Notes under the pieces: model-generated
Told to the model about the DNA's origin: nothing
The model's database searches: none
The model's input: only the letters and a program-made list of their open reading frames with translations
From: Dehalococcoidia bacterium
Lineage (GTDB): Bacteria > Chloroflexota > Dehalococcoidia > Lucifugimonadales > Australimonadaceae
Assembly: GCA_965248495.1 (NCBI GenBank)
Contig: CBDFJL010000003.1
Location: forward strand, 1,608,301 to 1,672,300
DNA length: 64,000 bases
Direction of reading: 5' to 3'
In this document: positions 3,432 to 60,311 of the stretch, in pieces
Layout: every line of letters starts with the position of its first letter
Numbering within the stretch: the first letter of the stretch is position 1
Program-made: the position numbers and the translations under genes

Positions 3432-4577
3432 TTACTGGCCGAGGACGAACTCTCGGATCTTGGCCGCCATACTCGATCGCTCTTTCCAGTTCGCGTCGCT
3501 CTCAAAGACGAACGTCTGCCCGGAAGCATCCATCTGGTCCCTAATTTCATTGTCCTGGTCAGCTCCAACTCGAATGGAGGCACTCTCCTCCCACGTGGCT
3601 GCTTGGCCGTCTGGTGAGCCAAGCCAGTGATTGAAGAGTCGAGCCACGTTGGGGTGTGGTGCGTCCCTCGTGATCGGCATACCGACCCGTGCCACGCCGT
3701 GTTCTCCGGCAAAGAAATAGTCGACAGGCGCTCCGTCTCGCCCCGATTGGATCGCACTGCCCAGAGAGCCGAAGAATAGGAGCTCTTTCTCCCCTGTCTC
3801 GAGGAGCTCGACGTACGCGTTGCTCAGCGTCAGATCCGCTTCTTCCGCGATCCGCTTAGCAAGCTGTTGGGCCTCTTCTAGCCCCCGTTCAAGGGCGACG
3901 AAGCCGAAGCCGAAGAAGTAGAGGAATGGGCTGGCAGCGATCTTGCCCTTCCACCTCGGGTCCAGGAAATCCTCAAAGCTCTGGGGTAGGTCACTGGCGT
4001 CGACCAGGTCTGTGTTGTACTCGTGGGCATACACAAAGTCCGAGTAGACCGGCAGGCAGCCGCCCCCCATGACGTACTCCCCGGTGAAGCCCAGCAGATC
4101 CCAATCTACATCGCCAGAGCACGCCAGATAACCCCTGTCGATTAAGCTCGAGGCCACGCCGGCAGAGGCCGTCAAGATGTCTGACGTCACCTTGTTTGCT
4201 TGGTACTCGGCAATGATCTTCGTCGGCCGTTCAGGCGTCGTGGCGGTCTGGATATTGATCTTTATACCAGGGAACTTGTCAGCGAACGGGCCCTCGGCCA
4301 GATTCCGCATGGCGTCACCCTGGGTCAGGATGGTCAGCTCCCCTTCGGCCTTAGCCTTCTCGTAGAGCTCGGCGATCCTGTCGGCACTGGTCGGGGCGGG
4401 CACACTAGTCGCTGTGGGCGCCGGCCCTGAGTCCGCGGGAGTGGTCGGCGTAGCCGTAGGCTGTGGGGCTGGGCTAGTCGGTGTCGGGTCTGAGCCTCCA
4501 CAGGAGGCCAGCACGAGGAGCCCTATCGCGACGAGCACCATTATCCAAAGAGGTCGGAAGCCATTGAGGCTGCGCAT
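3432..4577 (-). CDS. ABC transporter substrate-binding lipoprotein
   Basis: Signal peptide plus lipobox (LLVLASCGG), then a Pro/Thr/Ala-rich linker and a periplasmic-binding-protein-like body. I chose the start at ATG 4577 (MRSLNGF) because GGGGAG lies 6 nt upstream. The track ORF extends to 4628. Confidence 0.75.
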   Translation of the reverse strand: MRSLNGFRPLWIMVLVAIGLLVLASCGGSDPTPTSPAPQPTATPTTPADSGPAPTATSVPAPTSADRIAELYEKAKAEGELTILTQGDAMRNLAEGPFADKFPGIKINIQTATTPERPTKIIAEYQANKVTSDILTASAGVASSLIDRGYLACSGDVDWDLLGFTGEYVMGGGCLPVYSDFVYAHEYNTDLVDASDLPQSFEDFLDPRWKGKIAASPFLYFFGFGFVALERGLEEAQQLAKRIAEEADLTLSNAYVELLETGEKELLFFGSLGSAIQSGRDGAPVDYFFAGEHGVARVGMPITRDAPHPNVARLFNHWLGSPDGQAATWEESASIRVGADQDNEIRDQMDASGQTFVFESDANWKERSSMAAKIREFVLGQ

Positions 4578-4623
4578 TGTCATCTCCCCTTGTCCGGGCG
4601 TGCGCTCGGACACGAATGGGGAG

Positions 4624-4653
4624 AACATAGATGCGACGGCTTTACGGTGTCAA
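4624..4653 (-). promoter_or_regulatory. candidate sigma-70 promoter of the ABC importer operon
   Basis: On the minus strand: TTGACA (4653-4648), 18-nt spacer, TATGTT (4629-4624). This sits about 45 nt upstream of the 4577 start, and an AT-rich tract (4690-4745) lies just upstream. Confidence 0.45.
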
Positions 4654-6365: not shown

Positions 6366-7718
6366 ATGGCTGGTAACGGTGTCCACACAGAAGAAGCGCG
6401 CAGCAACGTAACGCTGGCCAACGCCTACAAGGGCGGTGTGTTCGACCTCGTCCCGAGGCTCGGGTATCGAGAGTATTGGCACCCCGGCATTCTCGTAGCC
6501 GACGTTGGCCGAAAGCCGGTGTCGCTCAAGATGTTGGGTGACGACATCGTGTTCTTCCGTGACGAGCATGGTGGTGTCGCTGCGCTGACCGACTACTGCC
6601 CCCACCGCGGTGCGCGCCTATCAGGCGGCTGGAGAGTCACACCGGGAGGAGGTGCGGCACCCGGGAAGATGAACAACGAGTTCAAGGGGTTCATCACCTG
6701 CCCTTACCACGGGTTCACCTACAACAGCACCGGGCAATGTGTCGCGGCGCTCACCGACGGACCGGAGTCACGACTGCAACCGGTGCTCCGGGCTCGCCAC
6801 TACCCCACGCAGGTACACCGAGGGGTGGTCTGGGTCTGGATGGGCGAGACCGAACCGGTCCCCTTGGAAGAGGATGTCCCTGACTATTTCTGGGACGACG
6901 ATGTCATCGACAAGATCAATATCCGGGTCTGGCCGATGAACTGGACCCTAACCGTAGAGAACTCACAGGACTCTCACGAAGGCAAAGTTCACCGGGGGAG
7001 TCTTCGAAGGGTGTGGTCGCTTGGCCTGTTCCGGAAGCAGGGTGCGTTCTGGGGAGGAGCCAGGGTCGTCGAAGAGGGGAAGAACTACGTCTACGTTGTT
7101 CCTATTGGCGCGGGGCAAACGGCTGCCTCGCGAACCCCTCAGGCCTTCTACCCTGTCCTCGGGAAGGTGTGGCCGAGGCATATTTGGTGGCGTCGTTTGG
7201 GACGTGGGGCCGGTCAACGGACGACTCGGTTTGACCCCGACCGTAAGGGCGGGATATTAAGGCTCCCTGCGATGGCCTCGCCGGGGATCCCTGCCACGAA
7301 CGTGCACCTCCGCTGGGCGGTGCCCGTAGACGAGGACTCGTGCCGGATGTGGACCTTCACGCTGACACGCCAGTCGTTCCGTACGGGGCCGTTCGGACTG
7401 TCGCGCTTCCTTGGGCGCATGTGGTGGAGGTTCATGTACAACACCTGGTATATCTATGGGTTTATCCAGGGCGTAAACGAGCTGGAAGACATGCCGATCC
7501 AAAGTATCGGGACGCTTGACCCTAACAAGCAGCAGACGATGGGCCCCTCTGACGCGGCCAATGCCTTCTGGCGACGCCGGATGCCGTTCAAGTCGCGTGA
7601 CTACGAACGCGTTTGGAGCGTCCAAGAGGCGAAAGCGGGCGAACTAGCAGCCAAGGAAGACCTCCAGCTCGAGGACGTTCAGCCCGCCACACCCGCGCCG
7701 GCCGTATCCAGGAGCTGA
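6366..7718 (+). CDS. Rieske [2Fe-2S] non-heme-iron oxygenase (alpha-subunit type; VanA/KshA/PaO-like)
   Basis: Rieske ligand motifs CPHRG and CPYHG are present. A mononuclear-iron region reads NWTLTVENSQDSHEGKVH. The RBS is good, and no reductase or ferredoxin gene is adjacent. Confidence 0.85.
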   Translation: MAGNGVHTEEARSNVTLANAYKGGVFDLVPRLGYREYWHPGILVADVGRKPVSLKMLGDDIVFFRDEHGGVAALTDYCPHRGARLSGGWRVTPGGGAAPGKMNNEFKGFITCPYHGFTYNSTGQCVAALTDGPESRLQPVLRARHYPTQVHRGVVWVWMGETEPVPLEEDVPDYFWDDDVIDKINIRVWPMNWTLTVENSQDSHEGKVHRGSLRRVWSLGLFRKQGAFWGGARVVEEGKNYVYVVPIGAGQTAASRTPQAFYPVLGKVWPRHIWWRRLGRGAGQRTTRFDPDRKGGILRLPAMASPGIPATNVHLRWAVPVDEDSCRMWTFTLTRQSFRTGPFGLSRFLGRMWWRFMYNTWYIYGFIQGVNELEDMPIQSIGTLDPNKQQTMGPSDAANAFWRRRMPFKSRDYERVWSVQEAKAGELAAKEDLQLEDVQPATPAPAVSRS

Positions 7719-15480: not shown

Positions 15481-17028
15481 CTAGTTCGCCGGGGACGACT
15501 CGTACAGGGACGTTTGTGGGTAGGAGGCGTACCACCCGAACCAGAACGCGCTGTGCGACGGCAGCCTCGCCAGCCGCGCGTCGCTGCCCCCTACTGGTGA
15601 CAGGCTCTCCTCGGTCGCTGCCCACTCACGCCCCGTTCGGTCGCGGAGAATGGGCGGCCCGGAGCCCCGCTCCAGGAAGTCCTCCTCGAACTCGGCTTCA
15701 CCTCGCAGGTAGGCTCGGCCACCGGAGCCCCCCGGCTCGACCACGACGACGACCGGCGTCCCGCCGATGGCGTCGTTGATGACCGGCGTGGTCAGCTCGC
15801 CCAGCACGTAGGCCCGCGCATCGCTTCCCAACAGGACGCCGAGCACCTCCTCCTTGGGGGCGACAGCGTCGCTCTGGACCCAGACGGGGAACATGGTCCC
15901 GGGGTTGGCTCGGTAGTCGTAGTAGATGGACTGACTGTCCGACTCGGGTGCGTAGGAGGACGAATCGTAGACGCCCGTCTCCGCCGACAGGACGGTCGTC
16001 CGCGGATGCTGGGCGAGCCACGCCGCCCAGGTGGTCACCACCACGGGAAAGCGCTCGAGCTTGATCCCACTGCCCACGAGGGGCCCGACGACCGGCTCGC
16101 CCGTGAACTGCCGCCATAGCGTGCCCGTGACGCGGTCGTACATGAGCTTGTTGCTCCGGTAGAGCAAGCCTGACGTGCCGAACTCGAACGGCTCGTTGCT
16201 GATCTCGGGGACCTCGGTGGAATACACGATTCCAGTGCCGCAGAGCGTTCAGTACGCAAGGGCGAAGTGCGCACCCCCGAGCACGTCATTCGCCATCTCG
16301 TGCGCATTCAGGATGCGGAGCGGGTAGGCGCGGTGCTCATCGTCGATCGAGAGCCCGAATACGCGGTCCGTCGGCCTGAGGTACGTAGCCTCGGCCGGGG
16401 CGATATGGGGCGGCATCCGCAGGTCGGGTATGCCATCCCTGGGGACTCCGCCCCAGACGACCTCTTCCAGTCTGATGTCGTGTTTCACACCTCGCGGGAG
16501 GAAGGCGCCCATGCTGGGATCGATGAGCGCATAGAGCGCGCCTTTCCACGCTGCGAAATCCTCGGGTCCGGCCACCTCCTCGTGTTCGCCCAGCCACGTG
16601 ATCCAGTCGCGCGACTCGCCGGCCAGCCGTTCCAGCGCTAGTTGGACCAGCTGAGTGACGTCGAGCCGACGCACGGCGGGCGAGTAGAGCATCTCGACAA
16701 GCACGGGAATGAACTGCGTGTCGCCTGAAGCGCCCATTCGTACTATGGGCCCAAGGTCGCCGTTGGAAGCACTGGATACCGCGGACCACATCAGGTCGCT
16801 CGCCGAGCCCTCGGGGATGAGCGTGGGCACCTGCGTTGGTGTCGGGCTCAGCGTTGGCGTCGGGCTCAGCGTTGGCGCCGCGCTCGGCGTTGGCGTCGGG
16901 CTCAGCGTTGGCGCCGGTGTGGGCACCGAATTGCCACACGCTGTCAGGGCCAGCGCGAGACCGAGCAGGACCACGCCAGCCACGATAGGCAATCCCACGG
17001 GCGGCAATCGATGTCGTGCCAAGGTCAT
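15481..17028 (-). CDS. DUF3179 family lipoprotein interrupted by a single in-frame TGA (selenocysteine candidate or pseudogene)
   Basis: ORFs 16249..17028 and 15481..16227 are in the same frame. The joined sequence reads ...PRDGIPDL...RAYPLRILNAHEMANDVLGGAHFALAY-TGA-TLCGTGIVYS...FGTSGLLYRSNKLMYDRVTGTLWRQ, which matches the remembered DUF3179 pattern (DGIP, AYP, HE.VND, YCPLC, SG.LY.S.L.MYDR.T.S.W.Q). The N-terminus has lipobox LALTAC and a PT-rich linker. Confidence 0.6.
16218..16234 (-). promoter_or_regulatory. candidate SECIS-like hairpin downstream of the in-frame TGA
   Basis: In the mRNA, 14 nt after UGA, comes UGGAAU-CGUGU-AUUCCA (6-bp stem, 5-nt loop containing GU). A lower CGG/CCG stem with a 3-nt bulge is possible. 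Confidence 0.3.
16833..16922. repeat. 18-bp tandem repeat x5 inside the DUF3179 linker
   Basis: Units gcgttggYgtcgggctca occur at 16833, 16851, 16869 (diverged), 16887 and 16905. They encode PTLSPT-type hexapeptide repeats on the minus strand. Confidence 0.85.
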
Positions 17029-17221
17029 CGCTAGAGTCTACGATTGCGGTGGCGCCTCGGTTCGTGATCGCGCGGCATCCGGCCGAAAGCTGACCATCTA
17101 CTGTTGCGAGACGGCGACCAGGGCTGGCGAAGGGGCGTCGGTGGGCGTGGCGATCTGCGACCGCCGCAGCGCGGACCCGAAGCGTAGAATCGCTCACCTA
17201 CGTTCGATTCGTGAGGATGCC

Positions 17222-18145
17222 ATGTCCCTCGCCCCCCACCGCATGGACTACCTGCCCCTGGTTGACCGACCGACGATCAAGTGGCCGAACGACGCGCGGC
17301 TCGCGTTCTGGGTATCACCGAACGTCGAGCACTACGAGTACATGCCGGCGCCCAACCCGGTACGAAACCCCTGGCCCCGCACGCCGTACCCGGACGTGCA
17401 GCAGTACTCGTTACGCGACTACGGCAACCGGGTTGGTTTCTGGCGCATGGTGGACGTCCTCGACAAGCACGATATTCGTGCCACGGTCTCGTTGAATGTC
17501 GCCGTGCTGGAGCACTTCCCGGAGGTCGCCGAGGCGATGGTGAGCCGGGACTACGACTTCATGTACCACGGGACCTATAACACGCGTTACCTGCTCACCC
17601 AGACTCCGGACGAAGAGCGCGAGTTCTACCGTGATGGCATCGAGACGGTGAAGCGTCACACTGGCAAAACGATGAAGGGGATGCTCGGCCCGGCGATCAG
17701 CAACACGATTCACACTCCCGATCTCATGGCCGAGGCGGGGCTCGTCTACCACACCGATTGGTTTCACGATGACCAACCGATGCCCATCCGAGTAAAGACG
17801 GGCAAGCTGATCTCCGTGCCGTACTCGCTGCTGTTGAACGACGCGCCGCTGAGCCGCAGCCCGTACGACGCGGATACGTTCGTGGACATGTGCAAGCGTC
17901 AGTTTGACGTGCTGTACCGAGAGGGCGAACTGAGCGGACGGGTCATGTGCATCGCGCTGCACCCGTACGTCATGGGTCAGCCTCATCGCATCAGGCAGCT
18001 CGACGAGGTGTTGCGGTACATCAGGTCGCACGAGGGGGTCTGGCACACGACCGCGGACGACATCGCCGACTACTACATCGAGAACTACTACGATCAGGCC
18101 GTGGCCCATGCCGAGCAGCTTGGCGCCGCTGGGAGGAGCTCGTAA
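17222..18145 (+). CDS. polysaccharide deacetylase-fold protein, PuuE (allantoinase)-like
   Basis: RDYGNRVGFWRMVDVLDKHDIRATV and ...CIALHPYVMGQPHR resemble the PuuE/CE4 fold. ATG 17222 follows GAGGA. The track ORF from 16709 is an extension over the divergent intergenic region. Confidence 0.7.
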   Translation: MSLAPHRMDYLPLVDRPTIKWPNDARLAFWVSPNVEHYEYMPAPNPVRNPWPRTPYPDVQQYSLRDYGNRVGFWRMVDVLDKHDIRATVSLNVAVLEHFPEVAEAMVSRDYDFMYHGTYNTRYLLTQTPDEEREFYRDGIETVKRHTGKTMKGMLGPAISNTIHTPDLMAEAGLVYHTDWFHDDQPMPIRVKTGKLISVPYSLLLNDAPLSRSPYDADTFVDMCKRQFDVLYREGELSGRVMCIALHPYVMGQPHRIRQLDEVLRYIRSHEGVWHTTADDIADYYIENYYDQAVAHAEQLGAAGRSS

Positions 18146-19809: not shown

Positions 19810-21291
19810 TCAGTCTGCGCGCGATACCCGCGTCGCATCCCGCCTCACCTTGCCGTCGGGCGTGAACAGCCCCGGCCACCTGGCCCGCAGCTCCTCAGCC
19901 TCGGCCTGTGTCTTGCGAGCGACGGCTGGGAACGTGTCGATCCGATCGTAGGGCCGGCAGGCGTCGATGATCATGCGATTGTTGTAGTAACGGCCGCCGC
20001 CGCCTTCGCCGGCGTAGGACATGGGGTCCAACGACGTACTCCACATCCGCCGGACCACGTCGATGTCGTCGGTCACCTCCGTGCGGGTGCATAGCGCCCA
20101 CAGGACCTCGTTCGTGTCGGTCGGGTCGATGTCGTCGTCGACGACGACGACGAAGCGGTTGGCGTAGGCGCCGGAGTGTACCGACGTCGCTGCGTGACCG
20201 ACCTGCTTCGCATGGCCTGGGTAAAGCTGCTTGATGGCGATGACGTTGAACAGCCGGCCGCCCCCCGCTTCGTGGGACCAGGCCCCGACGATGCCAGGGA
20301 TGCCAGCGCGCTCCATCTCGCTCCAGAGCAGGGCGGCGCGCATCGGGCTGCGGAAGTAGGTGTTGTCGTTGGGCGGCTTGCCTGGCAGGCAGCCGAGGAC
20401 GATGGGATCGTTGCGCCAGAGGACCGACGTGACGTTGATGATCGGCATGTCCCGCTCGCCCCCGGCGTAGTAGCCGGTCCACTCACCGAAGGGGCCTTCG
20501 GGGTGCGTCTGGTCCGGCGGTATCTCGCCCTCGATCACGAGCTCCGCGGTGGCGGGGACAGGCAGGCCGGTCTGGGGTGCGGCGATGACCTCCAATGGCT
20601 CCCCTCGGATGCCGCCTGCAACGGCGAACTCGTCGACGCCGTAGTCGACCTCGATGCCGCCGAGAACGAGGAGCAACGGGTCGTGCCCGAACGAGACGGC
20701 GACCGGGCAGGCCTGGCCTCGGGCCCAGTACTTATCGCGGATGAGACGGCCGTGCTTCCCTGGCGAAATCATGATGCCAAGCGTCTTGCTGTCGTGGACC
20801 TGAATCCGATACGTCCCGGCGTTGACCCACCCCGTGTCCGGGTCCCTGGTCATGACGATGCAGCCGGTACCGAGAAACTTGCCGCCGTCCTCGGTGTGCC
20901 AGAACGGCGCGGGGAATCGGGTGACGTCGATTTCGTCGCCGGTTGCGCGATTCTCCAGCACCGGGCCACCCTCGACGAGGCGTGGCGCCAGGGGCTTCAG
21001 ACTCTCGAGCCGGTCGCGCCACTCCCGGACGAACTCCCGCCGCGAGAGCCCCGTGGGCAGGCCGAGCGTCAGCAGCACGCGAGGCAGGGACGTGAGGACG
21101 TTCGCGACCAGCCGGTGGCCCTCCGGGTGGCCCTTGACGCGCTCGAACAGCAGGGCGGGGTTCTCCATGTCCCATTGGAACAGGTCGACCAGCCCCCCGA
21201 GCTCCAAGTGCGGGTCGGCACCTTCGACGCGGGTCAGCTCGCCCAGCTCCTCGACTCGTTCGATCCACTCGCGCAGGTCACTGACGGCCAT
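19810..21291 (-). CDS. UbiD-family (prFMN-dependent) reversible decarboxylase
   Basis: 493 aa. The N-terminus LREWIERVEELGELTRVEG and the overall length and sequence are typical of UbiD/Fdc1/HmfF-type enzymes. A ubiX partner lies 5 kb away. Confidence 0.9.
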   Translation of the reverse strand: MAVSDLREWIERVEELGELTRVEGADPHLELGGLVDLFQWDMENPALLFERVKGHPEGHRLVANVLTSLPRVLLTLGLPTGLSRREFVREWRDRLESLKPLAPRLVEGGPVLENRATGDEIDVTRFPAPFWHTEDGGKFLGTGCIVMTRDPDTGWVNAGTYRIQVHDSKTLGIMISPGKHGRLIRDKYWARGQACPVAVSFGHDPLLLVLGGIEVDYGVDEFAVAGGIRGEPLEVIAAPQTGLPVPATAELVIEGEIPPDQTHPEGPFGEWTGYYAGGERDMPIINVTSVLWRNDPIVLGCLPGKPPNDNTYFRSPMRAALLWSEMERAGIPGIVGAWSHEAGGGRLFNVIAIKQLYPGHAKQVGHAATSVHSGAYANRFVVVVDDDIDPTDTNEVLWALCTRTEVTDDIDVVRRMWSTSLDPMSYAGEGGGGRYYNNRMIIDACRPYDRIDTFPAVARKTQAEAEELRARWPGLFTPDGKVRRDATRVSRAD

Positions 21292-21298
21292 GACGTGC

Positions 21299-21745
21299 CT
21301 ACTCCGATCCCAGCTCGGCGGCGATACACCGGCTGAACTCGCGGCGGGTTTCCTCCGCCTTCCGTTTGACGACAGAGTTGCCGAGCGCGGCCAGGCGACC
21401 GAAGAGCGCGAAGTCGATCGAGTAGCGCACCTGGGTCCCGGCCTGCGCCTCGTCCAGTTCGAGCGAGAGCCTGTTCAGCTTCAAGCGGTTGCCCATGCGG
21501 TCCTGGCCGCTGCCGGTCACGACGACCCGCTTGGCCTCGACAGCTTCCTCTACCGCTAGGTCGATGTCCATCGCCACGCTGAACGGGCCCACCCGTTGGA
21601 CCATCCGAGCCCGGTAGCCGCCATCGTCCAGGGCCTGGATATCCTCGCAGCCCGGCAGGCAGCGGCCGACTCGTGGGAGGTCCCAGAACAGCGCCCAAAC
21701 CTCGCTGGGTGCCGCGCTCACCGTGAAACTGTCGCTGAGTTCCAA
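21299..21745 (-). CDS. SRPBCC-fold CoxG-like protein
   Basis: 148 aa. FTVSAAPSEVWALFWDLPRVGRCLPGCE is typical of the CoxG/carbon monoxide dehydrogenase subunit G family. Confidence 0.75.
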   Translation of the reverse strand: MELSDSFTVSAAPSEVWALFWDLPRVGRCLPGCEDIQALDDGGYRARMVQRVGPFSVAMDIDLAVEEAVEAKRVVVTGSGQDRMGNRLKLNRLSLELDEAQAGTQVRYSIDFALFGRLAALGNSVVKRKAEETRREFSRCIAAELGSE

Positions 21746-21754
21746 ACCGCACTC

Positions 21755-22750
21755 CTAGCCGTGGGCCTTGATGACGTCCTCGGCGAAGCGCTGAAGATAC
21801 TCCTTGCGCTCCTCCAGCGTCTTCGGCATGTTGTAGAAGCTGATGTTGACGAAGTCCACGCCCTGCTCGCCGAGCGCCGAGAAGCCCTCGACGCAGTCCT
21901 GGCCGTTGCCCACCACCGCCCAGTCCTCGACGCTCGATTCCGAGCTGATGTTGATGCGGACCATCGTGTCCTCCTGCATGTCCCACGAGCTATACATGCG
22001 GTAGGAGGACTCGGCAGCGTCGCGGGCCTCGTCCAGCGCCTTTCGCCTGTCAGCCGCAAAGGCCACGCCGCGCGAGGCTGTGACACGCCCGTCGCCCAGC
22101 CCTGCTTTCGCGCGCTCGTCGCGGTACGCCGCCACGAGGACGGGCAGGTCGTCAAAGCCGACCTGCGGCGCCAAATAGCAGGCGTCGGCGATGCGGCCTG
22201 CCCTGCGCACCGCGCCATCGCTTTGGCACGCGATCCAGATGGGCGGGTGCGGCTGTTGGACCGGGAGAAACCCCATCTTGGCCCCGCGTAGCTGCCAGTA
22301 GGTGCCCTCGTAATCGACCTCTTCGCCGGACCACAACCGCTTGATGACCTCGATGGACTCCACGAGCCGGGGCACGCGGTCCTTGCGCGTGGCCCCAACA
22401 GCCGCCAGCTCCGCCTCCCGGTAGCCGATGCCGACGCCGAAGATCACCCGGCCTTTGGAGATCTGGTCGAGGGTCGCGACGTCCTCGGCGACCTGAACGG
22501 GGTTGTGCAGCGGCAGCAACAGGATGCCGGTCAGCAGGCGCATGTCGCCCGTTTCCGGGGCCAGCCGGGCCAGCATCTGGAAAGGCTGCGGCCAGATCGT
22601 TGGGTGAGAGACCCAGTGCTGGGGCATCGTCGCCGTCGAGAAGCCCGCGTCCCGGGCAACGTGGCATATTTCGACCAGGTCGTCGATCTGCTCGTGCAGG
22701 GGTCGTGTGCGGTCGGTCAGGAAGGACCGGAGATACAGGCCGTACTCCAT
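21755..22750 (-). CDS. LLM-class (luciferase-like) flavin/F420-dependent oxidoreductase
   Basis: LLLPLHNPVQVAEDVATLDQISKGRVIFGVGIGY. ATG 22750 (MEYGLYL) is the likely start, and the track ORF reaches 22825. Confidence 0.8.
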   Translation of the reverse strand: MEYGLYLRSFLTDRTRPLHEQIDDLVEICHVARDAGFSTATMPQHWVSHPTIWPQPFQMLARLAPETGDMRLLTGILLLPLHNPVQVAEDVATLDQISKGRVIFGVGIGYREAELAAVGATRKDRVPRLVESIEVIKRLWSGEEVDYEGTYWQLRGAKMGFLPVQQPHPPIWIACQSDGAVRRAGRIADACYLAPQVGFDDLPVLVAAYRDERAKAGLGDGRVTASRGVAFAADRRKALDEARDAAESSYRMYSSWDMQEDTMVRINISSESSVEDWAVVGNGQDCVEGFSALGEQGVDFVNISFYNMPKTLEERKEYLQRFAEDVIKAHG

Positions 22751-22886
22751 GAGCTCCAAGGACGCCTTTTCAGGGTAGAGCGAGGCTATCACGGCGCCAA
22801 CGCTAGGGTCAGCCCTTGTAGGCATCGACGGCCCCGATTAGCATCGCGTTCAACCGGCCACCGGCCGACAAGCGTGGTCCACCTTC

Positions 22887-23759
22887 ATGAAACCCTTCAG
22901 GCTCCACGAACCGACCTCAGCACAGGAGGCCGTGTCCCTGCTCAGCGAGCGCGGAGACACCGCGAGGCTCTATGCGGGCGGCACCGAGCTTCTGCTCGCT
23001 ATGAGGAGCGGCCTGCTCGTGTGCGACGACCTGGTCAACGTGAAGACGGTCGACGGGCTTCGCGACATCGGCGTCGACGACGGGACGCTAGTTATCGGGG
23101 CCGCGGCGACGCACCGCGAGATCGAGTTCTCTCCCGTCGTGCGCGAGCATTTCCCCCTGCTGGCCGAGGTCGAGCACTTGGTGGCCAACGTTCGGGTCCG
23201 CAACACCGGCACGCTCGCCGGGAACTTGTGCTTCGCCGACCCGCACTCCGACCCCGCGACGCTGCTGCTGCTGTACGACGCTGAGGTCGAGATCGCCGGA
23301 CCCTCCAGCTCCCGGCGCATTCGGCTGGCGGACCTCCAGGTGGGTCCGTACGAGACGGCGCTGGCCGCCGACGAGATGGTCGTGCGCGTGCGCGTGCCGA
23401 GCGCCCCACGCGGCGCGGCCGACGCCTATCGTAAGTTCGGTCTCCACCAGCGGCCGACGATCGGCGTGGGTGCGATGTTGCGGGTCGAGGATGGCGTGCT
23501 ATCGGACGTGCGGCTGTCGCTGGGCTGCGTCTCGCCCGTCCCGAGACGGCTGCCGGACGCCGAGGCGGTCCTCATGGGCGAGCGGGTCGACGCCTTGAGC
23601 GAGGGCTCGTCCGTGGTCAGCGAAGCGGGCCGGCTGGCGGCAGCCGCGGCGGACGCGGTCGACGACCTGCACGGCCGCGCCGACTACAAGGAGCACCTCG
23701 TCGGCGTGCTCGCCGGACGCGTGCTCAGCGATGCGCTCTCCCGCCTGGGAGCGAGCTGA
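22887..23759 (+). CDS. molybdenum hydroxylase FAD-binding (medium, CoxM/XdhB-like) subunit, set 1
   Basis: LYAGGTELLLAMR FAD-binding motif and a C-terminal CO-dehydrogenase flavoprotein-like region (DDLHGRADYKEHL). Confidence 0.85.
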   Translation: MKPFRLHEPTSAQEAVSLLSERGDTARLYAGGTELLLAMRSGLLVCDDLVNVKTVDGLRDIGVDDGTLVIGAAATHREIEFSPVVREHFPLLAEVEHLVANVRVRNTGTLAGNLCFADPHSDPATLLLLYDAEVEIAGPSSSRRIRLADLQVGPYETALAADEMVVRVRVPSAPRGAADAYRKFGLHQRPTIGVGAMLRVEDGVLSDVRLSLGCVSPVPRRLPDAEAVLMGERVDALSEGSSVVSEAGRLAAAAADAVDDLHGRADYKEHLVGVLAGRVLSDALSRLGAS

Positions 23760-23760
23760 G

Positions 23761-24237
23761 GTGCCGGCGTTGACCCGCATCGCCGTCGAGTTCGAGCTGA
23801 ACGGCTCGCCCGCACGCATCGAGGTCGAGCCCCACGTCGCGCTCATCGATTTGCTGCGTGGCCCGCTCGGGCTCACCGGGACCAAGCGCTCGTGCGAGGT
23901 ACAGGTGTGCGGGGCGTGCACGGTCCTCGTCGACGGCCTGCCCGTGAGCTCCTGCACGCTGCCCGCCTTCGAGGTCCGCGGCACGCGCGTACTGACCGTC
24001 GAGGGACTTGCGCACGATTCGTTGGGTGCGTCGTTGACGGAGGCCTTCGCGGAGAGCGCAGCCTTCCAGTGCGGCTTTTGCACCCCGGGCATGCTCCTGG
24101 CGGCCAAAGCGCTCTTGGACAGCGTGCCGGAGCCGACTGAAGCGCAGGTCGTCGACTACCTCGGGGGCAACGTCTGCCGCTGCACCGGGTACAAGAAGAT
24201 CGTCGAAGCCGTCGTCGACGCAGGCCGACGCCCATGA
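23761..24237 (+). CDS. molybdenum hydroxylase [2Fe-2S] (small, CoxS-like) subunit, set 1
   Basis: Cys clusters CEVQVCGACTV, CGFCTPGM and CRCTGY. GTG 23761 lies 2 nt after the previous stop, with GGGAGCGAG upstream. Confidence 0.9.
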   Translation: MPALTRIAVEFELNGSPARIEVEPHVALIDLLRGPLGLTGTKRSCEVQVCGACTVLVDGLPVSSCTLPAFEVRGTRVLTVEGLAHDSLGASLTEAFAESAAFQCGFCTPGMLLAAKALLDSVPEPTEAQVVDYLGGNVCRCTGYKKIVEAVVDAGRRP

Positions 24238-26498
24238 CCCAGCGAGAGCTCAACACGGTCGGCCGCTCCGTGCGCCGGGTGGACGCCGACGACAAGTTGT
24301 CGGGCCGGGCCCTGTTCGCGGGCGACCTGACCGTGCCCGGCGCCGCCCATGCGAAGCTGGTCCCCAGCGAGTTGCCGCACGCCAGGATCAAGCGGCTGGA
24401 CGTGTCGAAGGCGCGCGCGCTGCCTGGCGTCTACGCCGTGCTGACCGCGGCCGAGCTGGTGAACATGGAGACCCACTACGGGTCGGACCGCAAGGACCGC
24501 CCCATCGTCGCGATGGACAAGGTGCGCTTCCAGGGCGAGCCCATCGCGGCGATCGCGGCGGTCGACCTCGCGACCGCGGAGGCGGCCGTTGAGCTCGTCG
24601 AGGTCGACTACGAGGAACTGCCGCCGGTGCTCGGCATCAACGAAGCGCTCGCGTCCGGCGGAGAGCCCGTCCAGGGCACGAACGTCTGCCACGAGTACGC
24701 CATCGAGTGGGGGCAGGTGGAGAGCGCGCTGGCTGGGTGCGACCACGTCTTCGAGGACGAGTTCACGTTTCCCATGGTCTACCACTACGCCATGGAGCCC
24801 CACACCTGCATTGCACACTTCGAGGGCGACCGCATCCGGCTCTGGACGTCGGCGCAGCACCCGTTTCTCGTGCGAGAGGAGATCGCGCGCATCTTCCGCT
24901 TGCGGCTCGATCAGGTGCAGGTGGTCGTGCCCTACGTGGGCGGCGGCTACGGCAGCAAGTCGTACACGAAGATCGAGCCGCTGGTCGCCGCGCTCAGCCG
25001 CGAGGCCGGGCGACCGGTCAGGCTCGGGCTCACCGTCGAGGAGGCGATGAAGACGGTGCGCCGCCACTCGGCGACGGCGACCGTCCGCACGGGCGTGAAG
25101 AGCGACGGCACCTTCGTCGCGCGAGACACACGCGTGTACGTGGACACGGGCGCCTACACCGACAACGGCGTGCGCGTCACCGAGCGCATCGCGGACCGCA
25201 TTACAGGGCCGTACCGCTTCGAGCACCTGCGCACGCGCGCGACGGGGTTGTTCACCAACACCACGCCCGCCGGCTCGTTCAGGTCCATCGGTGGCCCCCA
25301 GGCGGCCTGGGCCTGCGAGTCCCAGGTCGACATCATCGCCAGCGCGCTCGGCATCGACCCACTGGAGCTGCGGCTCAAGAACCTCGTGCGCTCAGGCGAA
25401 GAGGTCCTGCGGGGCCGCCGCCCGCTCGAAGCAGACCTCGCGGGACCGCTCCGCCAGGTCGCCGACGACTTTGGCTGGGGTGCCTACAAGCCGCAGCCGA
25501 CCGCGCCGCACCTCAAGCGGGGTGTCGGCCTCGCGTGCTCCGTGACCAACTCCGGCGCAAGCCCCATCTCGACCGCCCTCGCGCGGCTGCACGCCGACGG
25601 CAGCGCGAGCGTCCACGTTGGCACCACTGAGCTCGGCCAGGGCTCGCGCTCGGCTCTTGCCCAGATCGCCGCCGAGGAGCTTCGCCTGCCCCTGGAGTCG
25701 GTGCGTATGGTCGCCGCGGACACCGACGCGGTGCCCTATGACCGCTCGACGGGCGCGAGCCGGTCTACCACGCTCATGGGCCTTGCTGTCCACGACGCCG
25801 CAGCCGAGGTCCGCGACCAGCTGCTCAGGCTCGCCACCGAGTACCTCGAGGCGCCTTCCGAGCAGGTGGCGCTTGCCGATGCGTGGGCGGCCTTTGGCGA
25901 CGAGAGGGTTACGTACTCCGCGCTGATAAGGGAGATGTTCGGTGGGCCTGGAGGCGAGCTGATGGGGCGCGGCTACGTGACGCCCCGCCACCCCTCCGGC
26001 AAGCTGCGAGAGGACCCGATTTTCTGGGAGGTTAGCATGGGGTTCGCGGAGGTCGAGGTGGACGAATTGACCGGATTGGTGCGTATCCTGCGCTACACCT
26101 CGGTCGCCGACCCCGGCAAGGCCATCAACCCCAAGCAGGTCGAGGGGCAGGACGAAGGTGCCGCGATGCAGGCCATCGGCCACACACTCTTCGAAGAGAT
26201 GGTGTACGAGGACGGTCAGCTGATGAACGCGAACCTCGTCGACTATCGAGTGCCGACGTTCGCCGACCTGCCGTCGAGCTTCGAGACGGTACTGATCGAG
26301 CGGGGTGATGGCCCCGGTCCGTACGGTGCCAAGGGTGTCGGCGAAGGTGGGATCGTGGCCGTGGCACCGGCGGTGGCGAACGCGGTGTTCAACGCGACCG
26401 GCGCCCGCATCACCGACCTCCCCCTGACGCCGGAGCGGGTCTGGCGCGCCATCCGCGCCGTGAAAGCGCGCGCAGGGAAGGAGCAGGCCGATGCGTAG
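24234..26498 (+). CDS. molybdopterin-binding large subunit (xanthine dehydrogenase/aldehyde oxidase family), set 1
   Basis: 754 aa with GGGYGSK and AGSFRSIGGPQ blocks. It has an ATGA overlap with the small-subunit gene. Confidence 0.9.
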   Translation: MTQRELNTVGRSVRRVDADDKLSGRALFAGDLTVPGAAHAKLVPSELPHARIKRLDVSKARALPGVYAVLTAAELVNMETHYGSDRKDRPIVAMDKVRFQGEPIAAIAAVDLATAEAAVELVEVDYEELPPVLGINEALASGGEPVQGTNVCHEYAIEWGQVESALAGCDHVFEDEFTFPMVYHYAMEPHTCIAHFEGDRIRLWTSAQHPFLVREEIARIFRLRLDQVQVVVPYVGGGYGSKSYTKIEPLVAALSREAGRPVRLGLTVEEAMKTVRRHSATATVRTGVKSDGTFVARDTRVYVDTGAYTDNGVRVTERIADRITGPYRFEHLRTRATGLFTNTTPAGSFRSIGGPQAAWACESQVDIIASALGIDPLELRLKNLVRSGEEVLRGRRPLEADLAGPLRQVADDFGWGAYKPQPTAPHLKRGVGLACSVTNSGASPISTALARLHADGSASVHVGTTELGQGSRSALAQIAAEELRLPLESVRMVAADTDAVPYDRSTGASRSTTLMGLAVHDAAAEVRDQLLRLATEYLEAPSEQVALADAWAAFGDERVTYSALIREMFGGPGGELMGRGYVTPRHPSGKLREDPIFWEVSMGFAEVEVDELTGLVRILRYTSVADPGKAINPKQVEGQDEGAAMQAIGHTLFEEMVYEDGQLMNANLVDYRVPTFADLPSSFETVLIERGDGPGPYGAKGVGEGGIVAVAPAVANAVFNATGARITDLPLTPERVWRAIRAVKARAGKEQADA

Positions 26499-27096
26499 AA
26501 TCATCGTCGCCATCACCGGCTCGTCGGCGCCCATCTATGGCGTCTCGACGCTCCAAGCCCTCAACGCGAGCCCCGACGTCGAGACGCACCTCGTGCTCTC
26601 CGAGGGGGCCCGCGCCTCCATCCACCACGAGGCGCCTGGCTGGACTATCGACGGCATCACCGCGCTGGCGGACGTTGCGTACGACCCGCGCGACATGGCC
26701 GCGAGCATCTCCAGCGGCTCGTTTCAGACCGACGGCATGGTCGTCGTGCCCTGCTCGATGAAGACGCTGTCGGCCATCGCCAACGCCTACTCGGCGGACC
26801 TCATCGCCAGGGCCGCCGACGTGTGCCTCAAGGAGCGCCGGCGCCTGGTCGTCGTCCCACGCGAGACGCCGCTGAACCGCGCCCACCTCCTCAACATGCT
26901 CGCGGTCAACGACATGGGGGGCGTGGTGCTGCCGCCGGTCCCTGGCTTCTACGGGCGTCCTGAAACCGTCCAGGACGTCGTCAACCACACGGTGGGCAAG
27001 CTACTGGACGTTCTCGGCGTGCCCCACCATCTGTTCCAGCGATGGGGCGGCGGGGAGGCTGCCGATGTCGAAATCGGTCGGGAACCGACTTCCTGA
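26491..27096 (+). CDS. ubiX: UbiX flavin prenyltransferase
   Basis: IIVAITGSSAPIYG, SSGSFQTDGMVVVPCSMKTLSAIA, KERRRLVVVPRETPL and PPVPGFY closely match remembered UbiX/Pad1. Its start overlaps the large-subunit stop by 8 nt. Confidence 0.9.
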   Translation: MRRIIVAITGSSAPIYGVSTLQALNASPDVETHLVLSEGARASIHHEAPGWTIDGITALADVAYDPRDMAASISSGSFQTDGMVVVPCSMKTLSAIANAYSADLIARAADVCLKERRRLVVVPRETPLNRAHLLNMLAVNDMGGVVLPPVPGFYGRPETVQDVVNHTVGKLLDVLGVPHHLFQRWGGGEAADVEIGREPTS

Positions 27097-27493
27097 GCGC
27101 CTCCTCGCGGCGCTGGCCGCCGGGCACAGCGACAAGGTGCTGGTTGCAGCGACGCTTGACGACCAGGGCTGGCCACACCCGTCGCTCCTGGCCGCCGCGT
27201 CGGTCGAGCCGACTGGGGAGCGGACGCTGCGCGTCACGCTGGCCGAGGCCAGCCGGACCGCCGTCAATCTCGCCCGTGACGGGAAGCTCACTCTCGTGTT
27301 CGTCGACCCCGACATGGTCTACTACCTCAAGGTGCGTGCCGCCTCCGGGACCACGAACGAGGGCGATGGGCTGGTGAGCTTCGAGGCCCTTGTCGAAGAC
27401 GTGCTGGCCGACACGCCCGCGCCCGACGAGGCTGGCTCAGTCATTAGCACTGGGATAACCTTCCGCCACGCTGCCCCTGGGCAAGCTGGCTGA
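27065..27493 (+). CDS. small PNPOx-like (FMN-binding split-barrel) protein, tentative
   Basis: 142 aa with GGGGAGG 6 nt upstream of the ATG. It overlaps the ubiX end by 32 nt. Composition and pattern resemble the pyridoxamine-phosphate-oxidase-like fold, but I recognised no firm motif. Confidence 0.45.
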   Translation: MSKSVGNRLPERLLAALAAGHSDKVLVAATLDDQGWPHPSLLAAASVEPTGERTLRVTLAEASRTAVNLARDGKLTLVFVDPDMVYYLKVRAASGTTNEGDGLVSFEALVEDVLADTPAPDEAGSVISTGITFRHAAPGQAG

Positions 27494-27512
27494 AAGCCCC
27501 GGGGTACCCAAT

Positions 27513-28382
27513 ATGTATAGGTTTGAATATGCCCAGGCGGGGACCATCGACGAGGCCACCCAACTGCTCTCCGGTGAGAGCGACGCGCTGGTGCTCGCCG
27601 GGGGAACGGCAGCCGTAGTCCTGCTGAACCTTGGCCTGCTGCGGCCGAGCCTCGTCGTCGACATCGGTGGCATCGGTGGCCTGCATGGGGCAGGGGAGGC
27701 CGGCGGCGCCTATCGCCTCGGTGCGTTGACGAGCATACGTGAGATCGAGACTTCCGAGCGGGTCAAGGGTCGCTACCCGGTGCTCGCCGAGGCCGCGGCG
27801 CAGGTGGGCAGCGTCCGCGTCCGTAACGCCGCCACCGTCGGCGGCGCCATCGCCTACGGCGAGCCGCAGACCGACGTGCCCGTGGCCCTGGTTGCGCTGG
27901 GCGCATCCGTCGAGCTGGCCTCGCGGGATGGTCGGCGGAGCATGCCGCTGGCGGACTTCTTTCACGCCCCCTACGAGACCGACCTCGCGCCCGGCGAGCT
28001 GGTGACCGAGGTCACGGTTCCGCCCATGGGCTCAGGGACAGGCGGCTGCCATGTGAAGTTCACCATCGGTTCCATGGAGCACAAGCCGGTGGCCAACGTG
28101 TCGGCGATCGTTCGGCTGGACGCTGCGGGAGCATGCGAAGACGTGCGCATCGTCGCCGGCGCCGTCGGGCCAACGCCGTTCGTCGCGCAGCGGGCGGCGT
28201 CGATGCTGCGGGGCGCGAAGCCGTCCGACCGCGAGATCGAGCAAGCTGCGCAGGCGGCCAGCGAGGATGTCGAGCCCATCGACGACCTGCGGGGCTCTGT
28301 GTGGTACAAGCGCCGCATCGTGAAGGTGCTGGTGGAAAGGGGGCTGCGGTGCGCGATGCTCCGAGCGAAAGCCACAAAGTAG
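27513..28382 (+). CDS. molybdenum hydroxylase FAD-binding (medium) subunit, set 2
   Basis: LAGGTAAVVLLNLG, and the C-terminal DDLRGSVWYKRRI. Confidence 0.85.
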   Translation: MYRFEYAQAGTIDEATQLLSGESDALVLAGGTAAVVLLNLGLLRPSLVVDIGGIGGLHGAGEAGGAYRLGALTSIREIETSERVKGRYPVLAEAAAQVGSVRVRNAATVGGAIAYGEPQTDVPVALVALGASVELASRDGRRSMPLADFFHAPYETDLAPGELVTEVTVPPMGSGTGGCHVKFTIGSMEHKPVANVSAIVRLDAAGACEDVRIVAGAVGPTPFVAQRAASMLRGAKPSDREIEQAAQAASEDVEPIDDLRGSVWYKRRIVKVLVERGLRCAMLRAKATK

Positions 28383-30676
28383 TCGGCACGTCTCCACCGA
28401 CGCTCGAGGCCGCGGACAAGGCCACCGGGCGCACTGTCTATCTGCCCGACTTCGACGTGCCCGGCATGGCGCATGCCAAGGTACTCAGGAGCCCGTTTGC
28501 CCACGCGCGGCTCGTCTCCATCGACGCCTCCCGTGCGAACGCGCTGGACGGCGTGGTCTGCGTGCTCACACGCGAGGAGCTGCTGGCCGACCCCCGTGTC
28601 GAGGCCATGTACGGCTACGTGTTCCGGGACTCGCCGATCGTCGCGCTGGACCGCGTGCGCTACCAGGGGGACATCGTCGCGGTGGTGGTGGCCGATGAGC
28701 TCCAGACCGCTGAGGAGGCGCTGGAGCTCGTCGACGTTGAGTACGAGGAGCTGCCCTACGTCTTGGACGCCGAGCAGGCGATGGAGCCGGGTGCGCCCCT
28801 CGTCCACGACGAGATGCTGCCCATCGCCTCGGAGCTGCACCCGGTCGACGGCACCAACATCTGCCACCGAACGACGCTGGAGACCGGCGACGTGGCGAAG
28901 GGCTTCGCGGAGGCCTACGCAATCTTCGAGGACATGTACGAAGCGCCGCCCGTCCAGCACTGCGCTTTGGAGTTGCACGCCGTCATCGCCGACGTGCGAG
29001 ACGACGCCATGACGGTGTGGACGAATTGCCAGGCACCGTTCCCCTTGCGAACGGAGCTGGAGCGCATCTTCAAGCGCCCGGCTCGCGTCATCGTGTCCTA
29101 CGTTGGCGGCGGCTTCGGCAGCAAGAGCCGCGACCGCATCGAGGCGGTGGTCGCCGCTGCGTCCAATCTGGCCCGACGCCCGGTCCGCTTGGTGCTGACC
29201 CAGGAGGAGACCTTCCTCGGGGGGTACATTCGGCCCGCCTTCAAGTGCTGGATCAAGACCGGAGTGAAGGGCGACGGCACCATCGTGGCCCGCCAGTACC
29301 GCTTCGTGACCGACGTCGGCGGCTACGCCATCACGGGGGCGCGGAGCGCCAACAATACCGTCAAGGTCGCCACGGGCCCGTATCGCATCCCCAACGTGTT
29401 CGTCGAGTGCTTCGCGGTGTACACCAACAAGCCTCCGTCGGCTCCCTACCGGGGCCTGCCGACCACCCAGCACACGATGGCCTACGAGTCCCAGCTGGAC
29501 CGCATCGCACACGAGTTGGGCATCGACCCGGTGGAAATCCGGATGCGCAATCTGCTGGTCGAGGGTGACGTGCATGTCACTGGGGACCTCATCCGCTCGT
29601 CCCACGCCAAGGAGTGCCTGGCACAGACCGTCGAGGCCCTGGGCGAGCGCCCATCTCCACCGACGGCGGGCGTGCTGCGCGGTCGCGGCTTCTCCAGCAC
29701 CATCAAATACACCCTGACCCCGCCGCGGAGCTCCGTCGAGTCGGAGGCAGTCGTCGCGCTGGGGACGGACGGTGTTTACGAAGTGCGCGTCGCGACGGTG
29801 AACATCGGGCAGGGGTCCGATACCACGATGGCGCAGATCGCGGCCGAGGCCCTCGGCGCGACGCTGGCCGACATGCGGGTCGTCCACAGCGACACCGGGT
29901 TGGTTCCCCCCGACACGAGCACCACGGCCAGCCGGTCGACCTTCCACATGGGCAACGCGGTCCTCGATGCCGCGACCAAGCTGCGCGCGGAGATCATCGA
30001 CGTCTCGTCGGCGCTGCTCGAAGAGGAGGCGGAGGCCCTCGCGCTTGACGGCTCAGCCGTCCGAGTCGCTGCCGCCCCCGAGCGCCGCATCGGCCTCGTC
30101 GAGTTGGTGGAGGCGCAGGGCGGTCCGCTATCGATGTCCGGCGAGTGCGAGGTTGGCGGCACCTACGTTGACGCCGAAGGCCGCAGCTACCCGATCAGCT
30201 CCACCTTCTGGACCTTCGCGTCGGCCGGCGCTGACGTGGAGGTGTCCATGGAAACGGGTGAGGTTCGTCTGACCAAGGTCTCCTCCGCGGCGAACGTCGG
30301 CAAGGCCATCAACCCCGTGTCGGTCCACAGGCAGATCGAGGGAGGACTCGGCATGGAGCTGGGCCCGACGCTCTTTGAGCGGCTCGTGTGGGACGACACG
30401 GGCCAGTTGTTGACCTCGTCGCTGCTGGACTACCCGCTGCCGACGATGTCGACGATGCCCGAGTACGCGACCGCGCTCGTCGAGCCCCACTTCGAGGGCG
30501 GCCCATACGGCGCCAAGGGCATGGGAGAGGTTGGGTCCGTGGTGCTGCCGGCCGCCGTCCTGAACGCAGTCTACGACGCCACGGGTGTGCTCTTCCACAG
30601 CGTCCCATTGGACCCGGAGACCGTGCTGCGGGCGCTAGCGGAGGCCGCGGGCGAAGCCCCGGAGGAGCTCAAATGA
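28349..30676 (+). CDS. molybdopterin-binding large subunit (xanthine dehydrogenase family), set 2
   Basis: GTG 28349 follows GGAAAGGGGG. Blocks include GGGFGSK and APYRGLP. The track ORF from 28133 overlaps the FAD-subunit gene. Confidence 0.9.
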   Translation: MRDAPSESHKVVGTSPPTLEAADKATGRTVYLPDFDVPGMAHAKVLRSPFAHARLVSIDASRANALDGVVCVLTREELLADPRVEAMYGYVFRDSPIVALDRVRYQGDIVAVVVADELQTAEEALELVDVEYEELPYVLDAEQAMEPGAPLVHDEMLPIASELHPVDGTNICHRTTLETGDVAKGFAEAYAIFEDMYEAPPVQHCALELHAVIADVRDDAMTVWTNCQAPFPLRTELERIFKRPARVIVSYVGGGFGSKSRDRIEAVVAAASNLARRPVRLVLTQEETFLGGYIRPAFKCWIKTGVKGDGTIVARQYRFVTDVGGYAITGARSANNTVKVATGPYRIPNVFVECFAVYTNKPPSAPYRGLPTTQHTMAYESQLDRIAHELGIDPVEIRMRNLLVEGDVHVTGDLIRSSHAKECLAQTVEALGERPSPPTAGVLRGRGFSSTIKYTLTPPRSSVESEAVVALGTDGVYEVRVATVNIGQGSDTTMAQIAAEALGATLADMRVVHSDTGLVPPDTSTTASRSTFHMGNAVLDAATKLRAEIIDVSSALLEEEAEALALDGSAVRVAAAPERRIGLVELVEAQGGPLSMSGECEVGGTYVDAEGRSYPISSTFWTFASAGADVEVSMETGEVRLTKVSSAANVGKAINPVSVHRQIEGGLGMELGPTLFERLVWDDTGQLLTSSLLDYPLPTMSTMPEYATALVEPHFEGGPYGAKGMGEVGSVVLPAAVLNAVYDATGVLFHSVPLDPETVLRALAEAAGEAPEELK

Positions 30677-50040: not shown

Positions 50041-50157
50041 TGCTCGGGCGAGCGACCGGGAAACGCCGCCATTCGGCGGATTCAGGCAAGGTCGCGGCCC
50101 CGCGGACGGCTATAATAGCGGGGTCGTCGAAGGTGGCCGAGCACGGGAGGCTTGGGC

Positions 50158-59832: not shown

Positions 59833-60311
59833 TAGCTTGCTCCCTGCCGCTGCCCGTTCGACTGGTACCGAGACTCGATGTCTCGGACTTTGCCAAGGCG
59901 GCGGATGTGTCGTTCTTCCCCCGAAAAGCGTGCGGAGACAAACGACGTAACGAGCTCGCGGGCAAGCGCCGGGCCGACGATGCGTGCGCCAACGCACAGC
60001 ACATTCATGTCGTCGTGCTCGACGCCCTGCCGGGCCGAGTAGGTATCGTGACACATGGCCGCCCGCACGCCCGAGACCTTGTTGGCGGCTATGCTGGCGC
60101 CAACGCCGCTGCCGCATACCAGAACGCCACGCTCGGCTCTGCCTGCGACGATAGCCTCGGCCACCGCCAGGGCGAAGTCCGGGTAGTCGTCCTGCGGGTC
60201 CAGTGTGTGGGCGCCGATGTCTTCGACGTCGTGTCCAGCTTCGGCCAACCAGGCCACGGCCTCGTTCTTCAACGCGAGGCCAGCATGGTCAGCGCCGATG
60301 GCGATACGCAC
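59832..60311 (-). CDS. rpiB: ribose-5-phosphate isomerase B
   Basis: IAIGADHAG and [20 protein letters not shown] 60311 follows AGGGGG. The stop overlaps the tal-pgi start (TAATG). Confidence 0.9.

Follow-up and report, generated by a model that had tools for sequence, protein, structure and literature searches.

The subject of this analysis is a gene of the DUF3179 family on the minus strand (positions 15481 to 17028) of a 64,000-nucleotide (nt) stretch of contig CBDFJL010000003.1 from a Dehalococcoidia bacterium; this whole stretch is called the window below. The gene is interrupted by one in-frame TGA. We found that it is very probably a genuine selenoprotein gene, a single intact gene whose UGA is read as selenocysteine (Sec). 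The observations that carry this reading are the anatomy of the gene, the residue that homologs have at the TGA column, the conservation of the TGA among relatives, selection on a downstream hairpin at the RNA level, and the fit of this hairpin to the published model of the bacterial selenocysteine insertion sequence (SECIS).

One gene with an internal UGA

Two minus-strand open reading frames (ORFs), 16249..17028 and 15481..16227, lie in one common frame, and the TGA at 16251-16249 is the sole stop between them. An earlier note on this DNA, made from the sequence alone, had described this arrangement, and it is present at those coordinates. Read from the ATG at 17028 through the TGA to the terminal TAG at 15483-15481, the gene encodes 515 residues, of which Sec would be residue 260; the translation across the TGA is ...GGAHFALAY*TLCGTGIVYSTEV.... 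Both halves have the coding character that the note had claimed, with a GC content at third codon positions (GC3) of 0.81 in the final 300 nt 5' of the TGA and 0.90 in the initial 300 nt 3' of it. The DUF3179 domain (PF11376) occupies residues 197 to 506 (15511..16440, minus strand). This match covers the full profile, positions 1 to 292 of 292, and spans the internal TGA (E = 6.8e-68), with a hidden Markov model score of 229.7 bits against a gathering cutoff of 27.

The TGA column in the protein family

An alignment of the read-through translation to 21 full-length homologs, taken from the protein collection, places the TGA within the family. At the TGA column, 19 of the 21 have Cys, 1 has Trp, and 1 has Asp. 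The TGA takes the position of the first Cys in a conserved AY-C-TL-C-G motif (...ALAY-C-TLCG...), which is where the earlier note had put it. The UxxC signature that it had proposed is accordingly U-T-L-C (16240..16251, minus strand), consisting of Sec260 (TGA 16251-16249), Thr, Leu, and Cys263 (TGC 16242-16240). In the same alignment, the window protein retains every family-invariant residue.

Relatives at the DNA level have the same stop. The 80 best-matching loci, taken as one genome per GTDB species, come from metagenome-assembled genomes (MAGs) of Dehalococcoidia, SAR202, or other Chloroflexota and are 50 to 61% identical in amino acids to the window protein, 61% being the highest value in the genome collection. 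All 80 have TGA at exactly the same column, which answers the note's question about close relatives. With the window gene included, the TGA is the sole in-frame stop in 81 of 81 genes, and the open frame around it extends at least 147 codons upstream and 241 to 297 codons downstream. Cys forms served as seeds for a second scan, in which the column was TGA at 47 loci, TGC at 12, and TGT at 2; over both scans there were 128 TGA-form loci (102 distinct sequences). The DNA pattern of TGA plus hairpin matched at least 120 genome stretches. The 80 matches listed for this pattern were from Chloroflexota-type MAGs, save one bin labelled Actinomycetes. Given the recurrence of the TGA, the open frames around it, and its pairing with a hairpin, neither a nonsense mutation nor an assembly error explains the TGA. 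A search of proteins gives a different picture: its high ranks hold only full-length homologs, mostly Cys forms. This ranking is misleading because the Sec forms are truncated in protein sets.

A few loci deserve separate mention. The bin labelled Actinomycetes is the sponge MAG "Actinomycetes bacterium COS1_bin_4" (JAPOVR010000002.1; L176 / L109), the only non-Chloroflexota title among the matches listed, and its label on a TGA-form contig could reflect mis-binning or horizontal transfer. Protein P0003 (L081:10001-11329) has TGG (Trp) at the Sec column together with a perfect hairpin (CCGGAATCGTGTATTCCG) on a contig labelled with 2x coverage; here a TGA was either misread in sequencing or mutated very recently. 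At one locus (L032, CBDFGS010000012.1), a second DUF3179 paralog (protein P0113) lies on the same strand and within the same 7 kb as the Sec form; in this paralog, neither motif residue is left (AY-D-VQ-T-G), but HExAND is kept. Two separate TGA-plus-hairpin copies (L194 and L218) were present on one Dehalococcoidia chromosome (OZ253584.1), and therefore Sec-form paralogs exist in a single genome.

A conserved hairpin after the UGA

The hairpin that the earlier note had drawn is there as described: UGGAAU (16234-16229), a CGUGU loop (16228-16224), and AUUCCA (16223-16218), so that the upper stem-loop spans 16218..16234 on the minus strand, within codons for T-G-I-V-Y-S-T. It begins 14 nt after the UGA, and its loop begins 20 nt after the UGA. 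A lower stem of CGG (16240-16238) and CCG (16217-16215) is possible below it, with 3 nt bulged between the two stems. The full SECIS candidate, from the UGA through an extended lower stem made of CGG/CCG and further pairs, spans 16210..16251 and has a minimum free energy (MFE) of -8.9 kcal/mol.

We compared the hairpin with published criteria for bacterial SECIS elements; this was a comparison by feature and not bSECISearch output. The model in Fig. 2A of a 2026 review (PMC13188914) gives a loop of 3 to 9 nt, an upper stem of 4 to 16 base pairs (bp), a UGA-to-loop spacing of 16 to 37 nt, a G in the first two loop positions that is usually followed by G or U, and an MFE of at most -7.5 kcal/mol. 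With a 5-nt loop, a 6-bp stem, a spacing of 20 nt, and -8.9 kcal/mol for 16210-16251, the window hairpin lies within every one of these limits, and its loop has G at position 2 and U at position 3. Thus, the spacing that the note had judged suitable for a SECIS falls inside the range of this model.

The conservation of the hairpin among relatives was more informative. In a 58-column alignment of 80 sequences, GGAATCGTGTATTCC was almost invariant, while the adjacent ACN and GGN codons varied freely, and RNAalifold predicted exactly the 6-bp stem. This stem pairs in 97% of cells across the relatives. For the observed register, pairing reaches 85.6% of cells, compared with 24 to 59% when the 3' partners are slid by 1 to 3 columns. 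The outermost pair (columns 21 and 37) is CG in 36 sequences, UA in 28, and GC in 2 and is broken in 14, and an inner pair (24 and 34) is AU in 68, GU in 11, and CG in 1. Both of these pairs covary, as the note had thought worth checking, and a compensatory change is seen at locus L069, where GGCAU is paired with AUGCC.

Codon usage in the hairpin was also constrained. Over the 128 TGA-form loci (102 distinct), the synonymous entropies of codons +6 to +10 (GGA ATC GTG TAT TCC, encoding G-I-V-Y-S) were 0.54, 0.19, 0.08, 0.00, and 0.08 bits, and equally conserved residues elsewhere in the same alignment had about 0.6 to 2.0 bits. Tyr +9 is TAT in every sequence, and the other Tyr codons of the alignment are mixed. 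The SECIS constraint therefore fixes five codons and hence the peptide G-I-V-Y-S. The window gene carries the exact consensus hairpin, all synonymous positions included. None of the 14 Cys-form loci (12 TGC and 2 TGT) can form the hairpin, and their codons vary at these positions. Taken together, these results show selection on the hairpin at the RNA level.

Two further loci keep the GGAAU/AUUCC stem with another loop. At L071, the loop is ACACG (peptide GIHDS) and is without the loop G-U, so that the element or the gene may be degenerating there; at L038, the loop is AGUCU.

Proposed decoding of the UGA

In the mechanism that we propose, the UGA would be decoded as Sec during translation. The hairpin, with G-U at loop positions 2 and 3, would serve as a bacterial SECIS element and would recruit SelB with GTP and Sec-tRNA(Sec) to the ribosome, where Sec insertion would outcompete release factor 2. 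We infer both the binding of SelB and the insertion of selenium at UGA 16251-16249. The product would be a lipoprotein with an LTAC lipobox, a Pro/Thr linker, a helical domain, and the DUF3179 domain, anchored to the outer face of the cytoplasmic membrane and bearing U-T-L-C.

Evidence against Sec and alternative explanations

Several results weigh against decoding of this UGA as Sec. First, tblastn with the E. coli proteins of the annotated K-12 record found no SelA, SelB, or SelD homolog in the 64-kb window, ARAGORN found no tRNA in it, and nothing in it matched Rfam at the gathering score. Second, the 17-nt hairpin alone is short and weak (-3.6 kcal/mol), and in the window sequence the hairpin folds no better than shuffled sequence, with z-scores of 0.18 and -0.25. 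Third, the bulged lower stem suggested by the note can form in the window, but CGG/CCG is poorly conserved and pairs in only 63% of cells in the relatives, so this part of the SECIS model is weakly supported. Fourth, the nearest relative found has Cys at the Sec column. Finally, the SelA counts available for related genomes are soft because COG1921 includes DgaE-like paralogs; those for SelB and SelD are more specific.

With regard to the hairpin, it stands above chance because of the comparative evidence and not because of the folding of a single sequence. With regard to the nearest relative, this protein (P0002, L082:10001-11596) is 60% identical to the window protein, has the VPEIxxEP insertion in common with it, and carries TGC where the window gene has its Sec codon. 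One synonymous change, TAT to TAC, disrupts the hairpin in P0002. These features suggest that Sec was recently converted to Cys and that the SECIS is decaying. Since the nearest relative has Cys, Sec-to-Cys turnover is ongoing near the window's lineage.

The Sec machinery was considered in other genomes of the TGA form. Two TGA-form loci, L054 (MPMJ01000010.1) and L033 (MPMM01000002.1), belong to the SAR202 bins 16 and 22, respectively, of Slaby et al. 2017. Table S4 of PMC5649159 gives bin16 and bin22 one SelB (COG3276) and one SelD (COG0709) each; for SelA (COG1921), it gives one in bin16 and two in bin22. In the literature, selenoproteins have been reported in Chloroflexi, as has an unusual 8/4 tRNA(Sec) species (PMC5389517). 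ARAGORN found no tRNA(Sec) in the window or in loci L001 to L060, and these loci gave only tRNA-Gly and tRNA-Ser. The window sequence had no match among plasmids.

Some candidates for machinery were rejected. At about 20 loci, tblastn matches resembling SelD or SelA adjoin DUF3179. The SelD-like genes are ThiL instead (NCBIfam TIGR01379, above cutoff), and the SelA-like genes resemble DgaE-family pyridoxal phosphate lyases, below cutoff. An AIRS-family protein at L117 fell below every cutoff.

Among the alternatives to Sec, we considered that the gene is dying after a recent nonsense mutation of a Cys codon (TGC or TGT) to TGA. A single base change turns TGC into TGA, the nearest relative found carries TGC, and no Sec machinery is seen in the window. 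However, a recent mutation does not fit the presence of TGA in all 80 best-matching genomes and in 128 loci overall, nor does a dying gene fit the absence of a second disruption from all 81 genes (0/81) or the window's retention of the exact consensus hairpin, down to its synonymous positions, and of all family-invariant residues. We therefore regard a pseudogene as very unlikely.

In our judgment, it is just as improbable that the UGA specifies a residue other than Sec, be it through insertion of Cys by an opal suppressor tRNA(Cys) that resembles tRNA(Sec) or through lineage-wide reassignment of UGA. A tRNA(Cys) that mimics tRNA(Sec) and is a possible opal suppressor is known from deltaproteobacteria, and the 8/4 tRNA(Sec) of Chloroflexi is itself unusual (both PMC5389517); moreover, sequence analyses such as ours do not separate Sec from Cys insertion. 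General reassignment is nevertheless not the answer, since TGA is an ordinary terminator here, ending 17 of the 50 ORFs called in the window and 27 of the 81 DUF3179 genes. As for the suppressor, SelA and SelD are reported for TGA-form genomes, and the suppressor tRNA(Cys) is known from deltaproteobacteria and not from Chloroflexi, so that reading of the UGA as Cys is less likely than reading as Sec.

An assembly or sequencing error with a true codon of TGC or TGG is less credible still. P0003, with its TGG and intact hairpin on a 2x-coverage contig, indicates that such errors or very recent changes occur, but TGA is found in 128 independent assemblies made by different methods, and an error would not coincide with a hairpin restricted to TGA forms. 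Equally implausible is a pair of genes, a 259-residue N-terminal lipoprotein terminated by the TGA and a protein of 248 residues initiated at GTG 16227: although automatic gene callers split the locus this way and the public protein collection has the 248-residue fragment, the split would fall inside a single Pfam domain and inside the single compact predicted fold of a Cys homolog, the GTG sits in the hairpin loop, the second fragment is without a signal peptide, and the break is always at the Cys column. A selenoprotein gene read through its UGA remains the explanation that we favor. A scan of the window for other GC3-rich ORF pairs split by TGA gave no convincing further selenoprotein candidates.

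Predicted properties of the protein

The N terminus of the translation (residues 1 to 31; 16936..17028, minus strand) reads as a lipoprotein signal peptide: after a basic n-region and a hydrophobic core comes the lipobox L-T-A-C31, which has the form [LVI][ASTVI][GAS]C. By a strict regular expression, a hydrophobic stretch and a lipobox Cys are present in at least 64 of the 81 orthologs, and in alignment A3 the conservation of the lipobox Cys is 90% or more. A prolipoprotein diacylglyceryl transferase, Lgt (PF01790, E = 5.9e-60), is encoded in the window at 50152-51105 on the plus strand. The product is thus probably a lipoprotein on the outer face of the membrane, its export and lipidation being predicted from these sequence features. 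The signal is followed by a Pro/Thr-rich linker (PTPAPTLSPTPTPSAAPTLSPTPTLSPTPT...; residues 32 to 70; 16819..16935, minus strand), which is variable and gapped across homologs, and by an N-terminal helical domain (residues ~71 to 196; 16441..16818, minus strand). The latter matched no Pfam family and was conserved by tblastn in 122 fetched loci.

As a structural stand-in, we used an AlphaFold2 model of P0002, the closest Cys homolog. The model is confident, with a predicted local distance difference test (pLDDT) score of 86 and a predicted template modeling (pTM) score of 0.83. It consists of a helical N-domain, whose helices have pLDDT scores above 90, and a beta-rich DUF3179 domain. Foldseek returned no match to this model in the PDB at E <= 0.001, and a sequence search of the PDB returned none at the default threshold of E = 0.001, the best value being E = 0.6. 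In a structure search of BFVD there was one match, an uncharacterised giant-virus protein. The predicted fold thus appears to be without a match among solved structures.

Two known folds were considered and rejected. A thioredoxin fold is disfavored by the lack of a thioredoxin Pfam match, by the beta-rich DUF3179 part of the model, and by the lack of a Foldseek PDB match at E <= 0.001. Several Rieske oxygenases were among the weak Foldseek matches, all with E above 0.3. A comparison by hhalign with the window's own Rieske protein gave a probability of 0.2%, and the CxH...CxxH ligand set is absent from the protein.

The surroundings of the gene gave no lead to its function, as there was no conserved synteny around DUF3179 in the ortholog loci compared. 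The neighbors in the window are ABC-2 transporter genes, an MFS transporter gene, and a polysaccharide deacetylase-like gene, none of which adjoin the orthologs. Our best guess is that the UxxC site forms a redox-active selenylsulfide or binds a metal.

Other features of the window

A mechanically called ORF (16709-18145, plus strand) runs antisense across the 5' end of the DUF3179 gene. Its polysaccharide deacetylase match lies in the C-terminal part only, from about residue 237. The real gene probably starts at around 17.2 kb, and high GC content, which in the window is 66%, accounts for the spurious overlap. Lipobox-like N termini are also found in the window proteins at 3432-4628, 35664-38534, and 41786-43222. 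The second of these (minus strand) is a 956-residue putative lipoprotein with PKD domains, PD40 beta-propeller repeats, and a C-terminal trypsin-like protease domain.

Many genes for the catabolism of aromatic or recalcitrant compounds lie at 23-1000, 6366-7718, and 19810-30676. They include a LigB-type dioxygenase, a Rieske oxygenase, UbiD, a UbiX-like flavoprotein, CoxG, and two molybdenum subunits of the aldehyde oxidase/xanthine dehydrogenase type. Catabolism of this kind has been described for SAR202. The window also has a putative luciferase-like monooxygenase, read from its translation only. A long ORF at 57097-60117 (minus strand) fuses transaldolase and phosphoglucose isomerase domains and adjoins a glucose-6-phosphate dehydrogenase-like gene that was identified by translation only.

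Implications for annotation and selenium biology

In public protein sets, the window gene is represented by P0001, a protein of 248 residues that "starts" within the SECIS loop, at GTG 16227-16225. The truncation is an annotation artefact of the Sec codon, and other TGA-form orthologs are probably affected in the same way. Standard gene callers split or truncate the window gene and more than 100 Chloroflexota orthologs at the UGA; each should be annotated as a single selenoprotein gene. Among the Dehalococcoidia and SAR202 loci sampled, the Sec form is dominant. These results do not overturn current knowledge; they are of use for the selenium biology of ocean Chloroflexota and for the search for the function of DUF3179.

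A wider proposal, which we offer tentatively and think rather unlikely to hold, is that the Sec form is the normal state of this DUF3179 surface lipoprotein, with its fold unseen in solved structures, in the abundant marine SAR202 and Dehalococcoidia. If so, these bacteria, which are mostly aerobic degraders of organic matter, would carry out selenium chemistry outside their cytoplasm. There would then be an unrecognised and widespread selenium-dependent activity, in redox or metal handling, that is systematically truncated at the UGA in public protein sets.

Comparison with known systems

The earlier note knew of no listing of DUF3179 as a selenoprotein family. DUF3179 does already appear, with the motif UxxC/T, in selenoprotein tables of PMC9312934 (example MBW1804167.1) and PMC13188914 (example MDJ0986319.1), and for this family the tables cite Zhang & Gladyshev 2007, NAR 35:4952. 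The selenoprotein status of the family is therefore already known, and the window gene is not novel at the family level. It agrees with the listed family in its Pfam domain, in Sec as the first residue of UxxC, in the existence of Cys homologs, and in the stem-loop after the UGA; as far as the table rows for the two example proteins go, there is no difference in definition. Beyond those rows, the present analysis adds the prevalence of the Sec form in marine Dehalococcoidia and SAR202, a family-specific and nearly invariant hairpin, GGAAUCGUGUAUUCC, by which the peptide G-I-V-Y-S is fixed, a lipoprotein signal, and a predicted fold without a solved relative.

With bacterial SECIS elements in general, the hairpin shares its place in the coding sequence just 3' of the UGA, a small apical loop, and a G followed by U near the 5' side of the loop. 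The prototype is the E. coli fdhF element, and in E. coli a 17-nt upper stem-loop about 11 nt after the UGA is sufficient. The upper stem-loop in the window is likewise 17 nt long and lies 14 nt after the UGA. In contrast to fdhF, its stem is short (5 invariant bp and 1 that covaries), its upper stem is without a bulged U, and its sequence is unlike that of fdhF.

Exported or periplasmic selenoproteins with UxxC or CxxU are known as well, for example, the Sec-containing thiol-disulfide oxidoreductase-like proteins predicted in marine metagenomes. The window protein resembles them in having Sec and Cys three residues apart and an export signal. It differs from the thioredoxin-type exported selenoproteins in that DUF3179 does not have a thioredoxin fold, the P0002 model being mostly beta-strand in that region.

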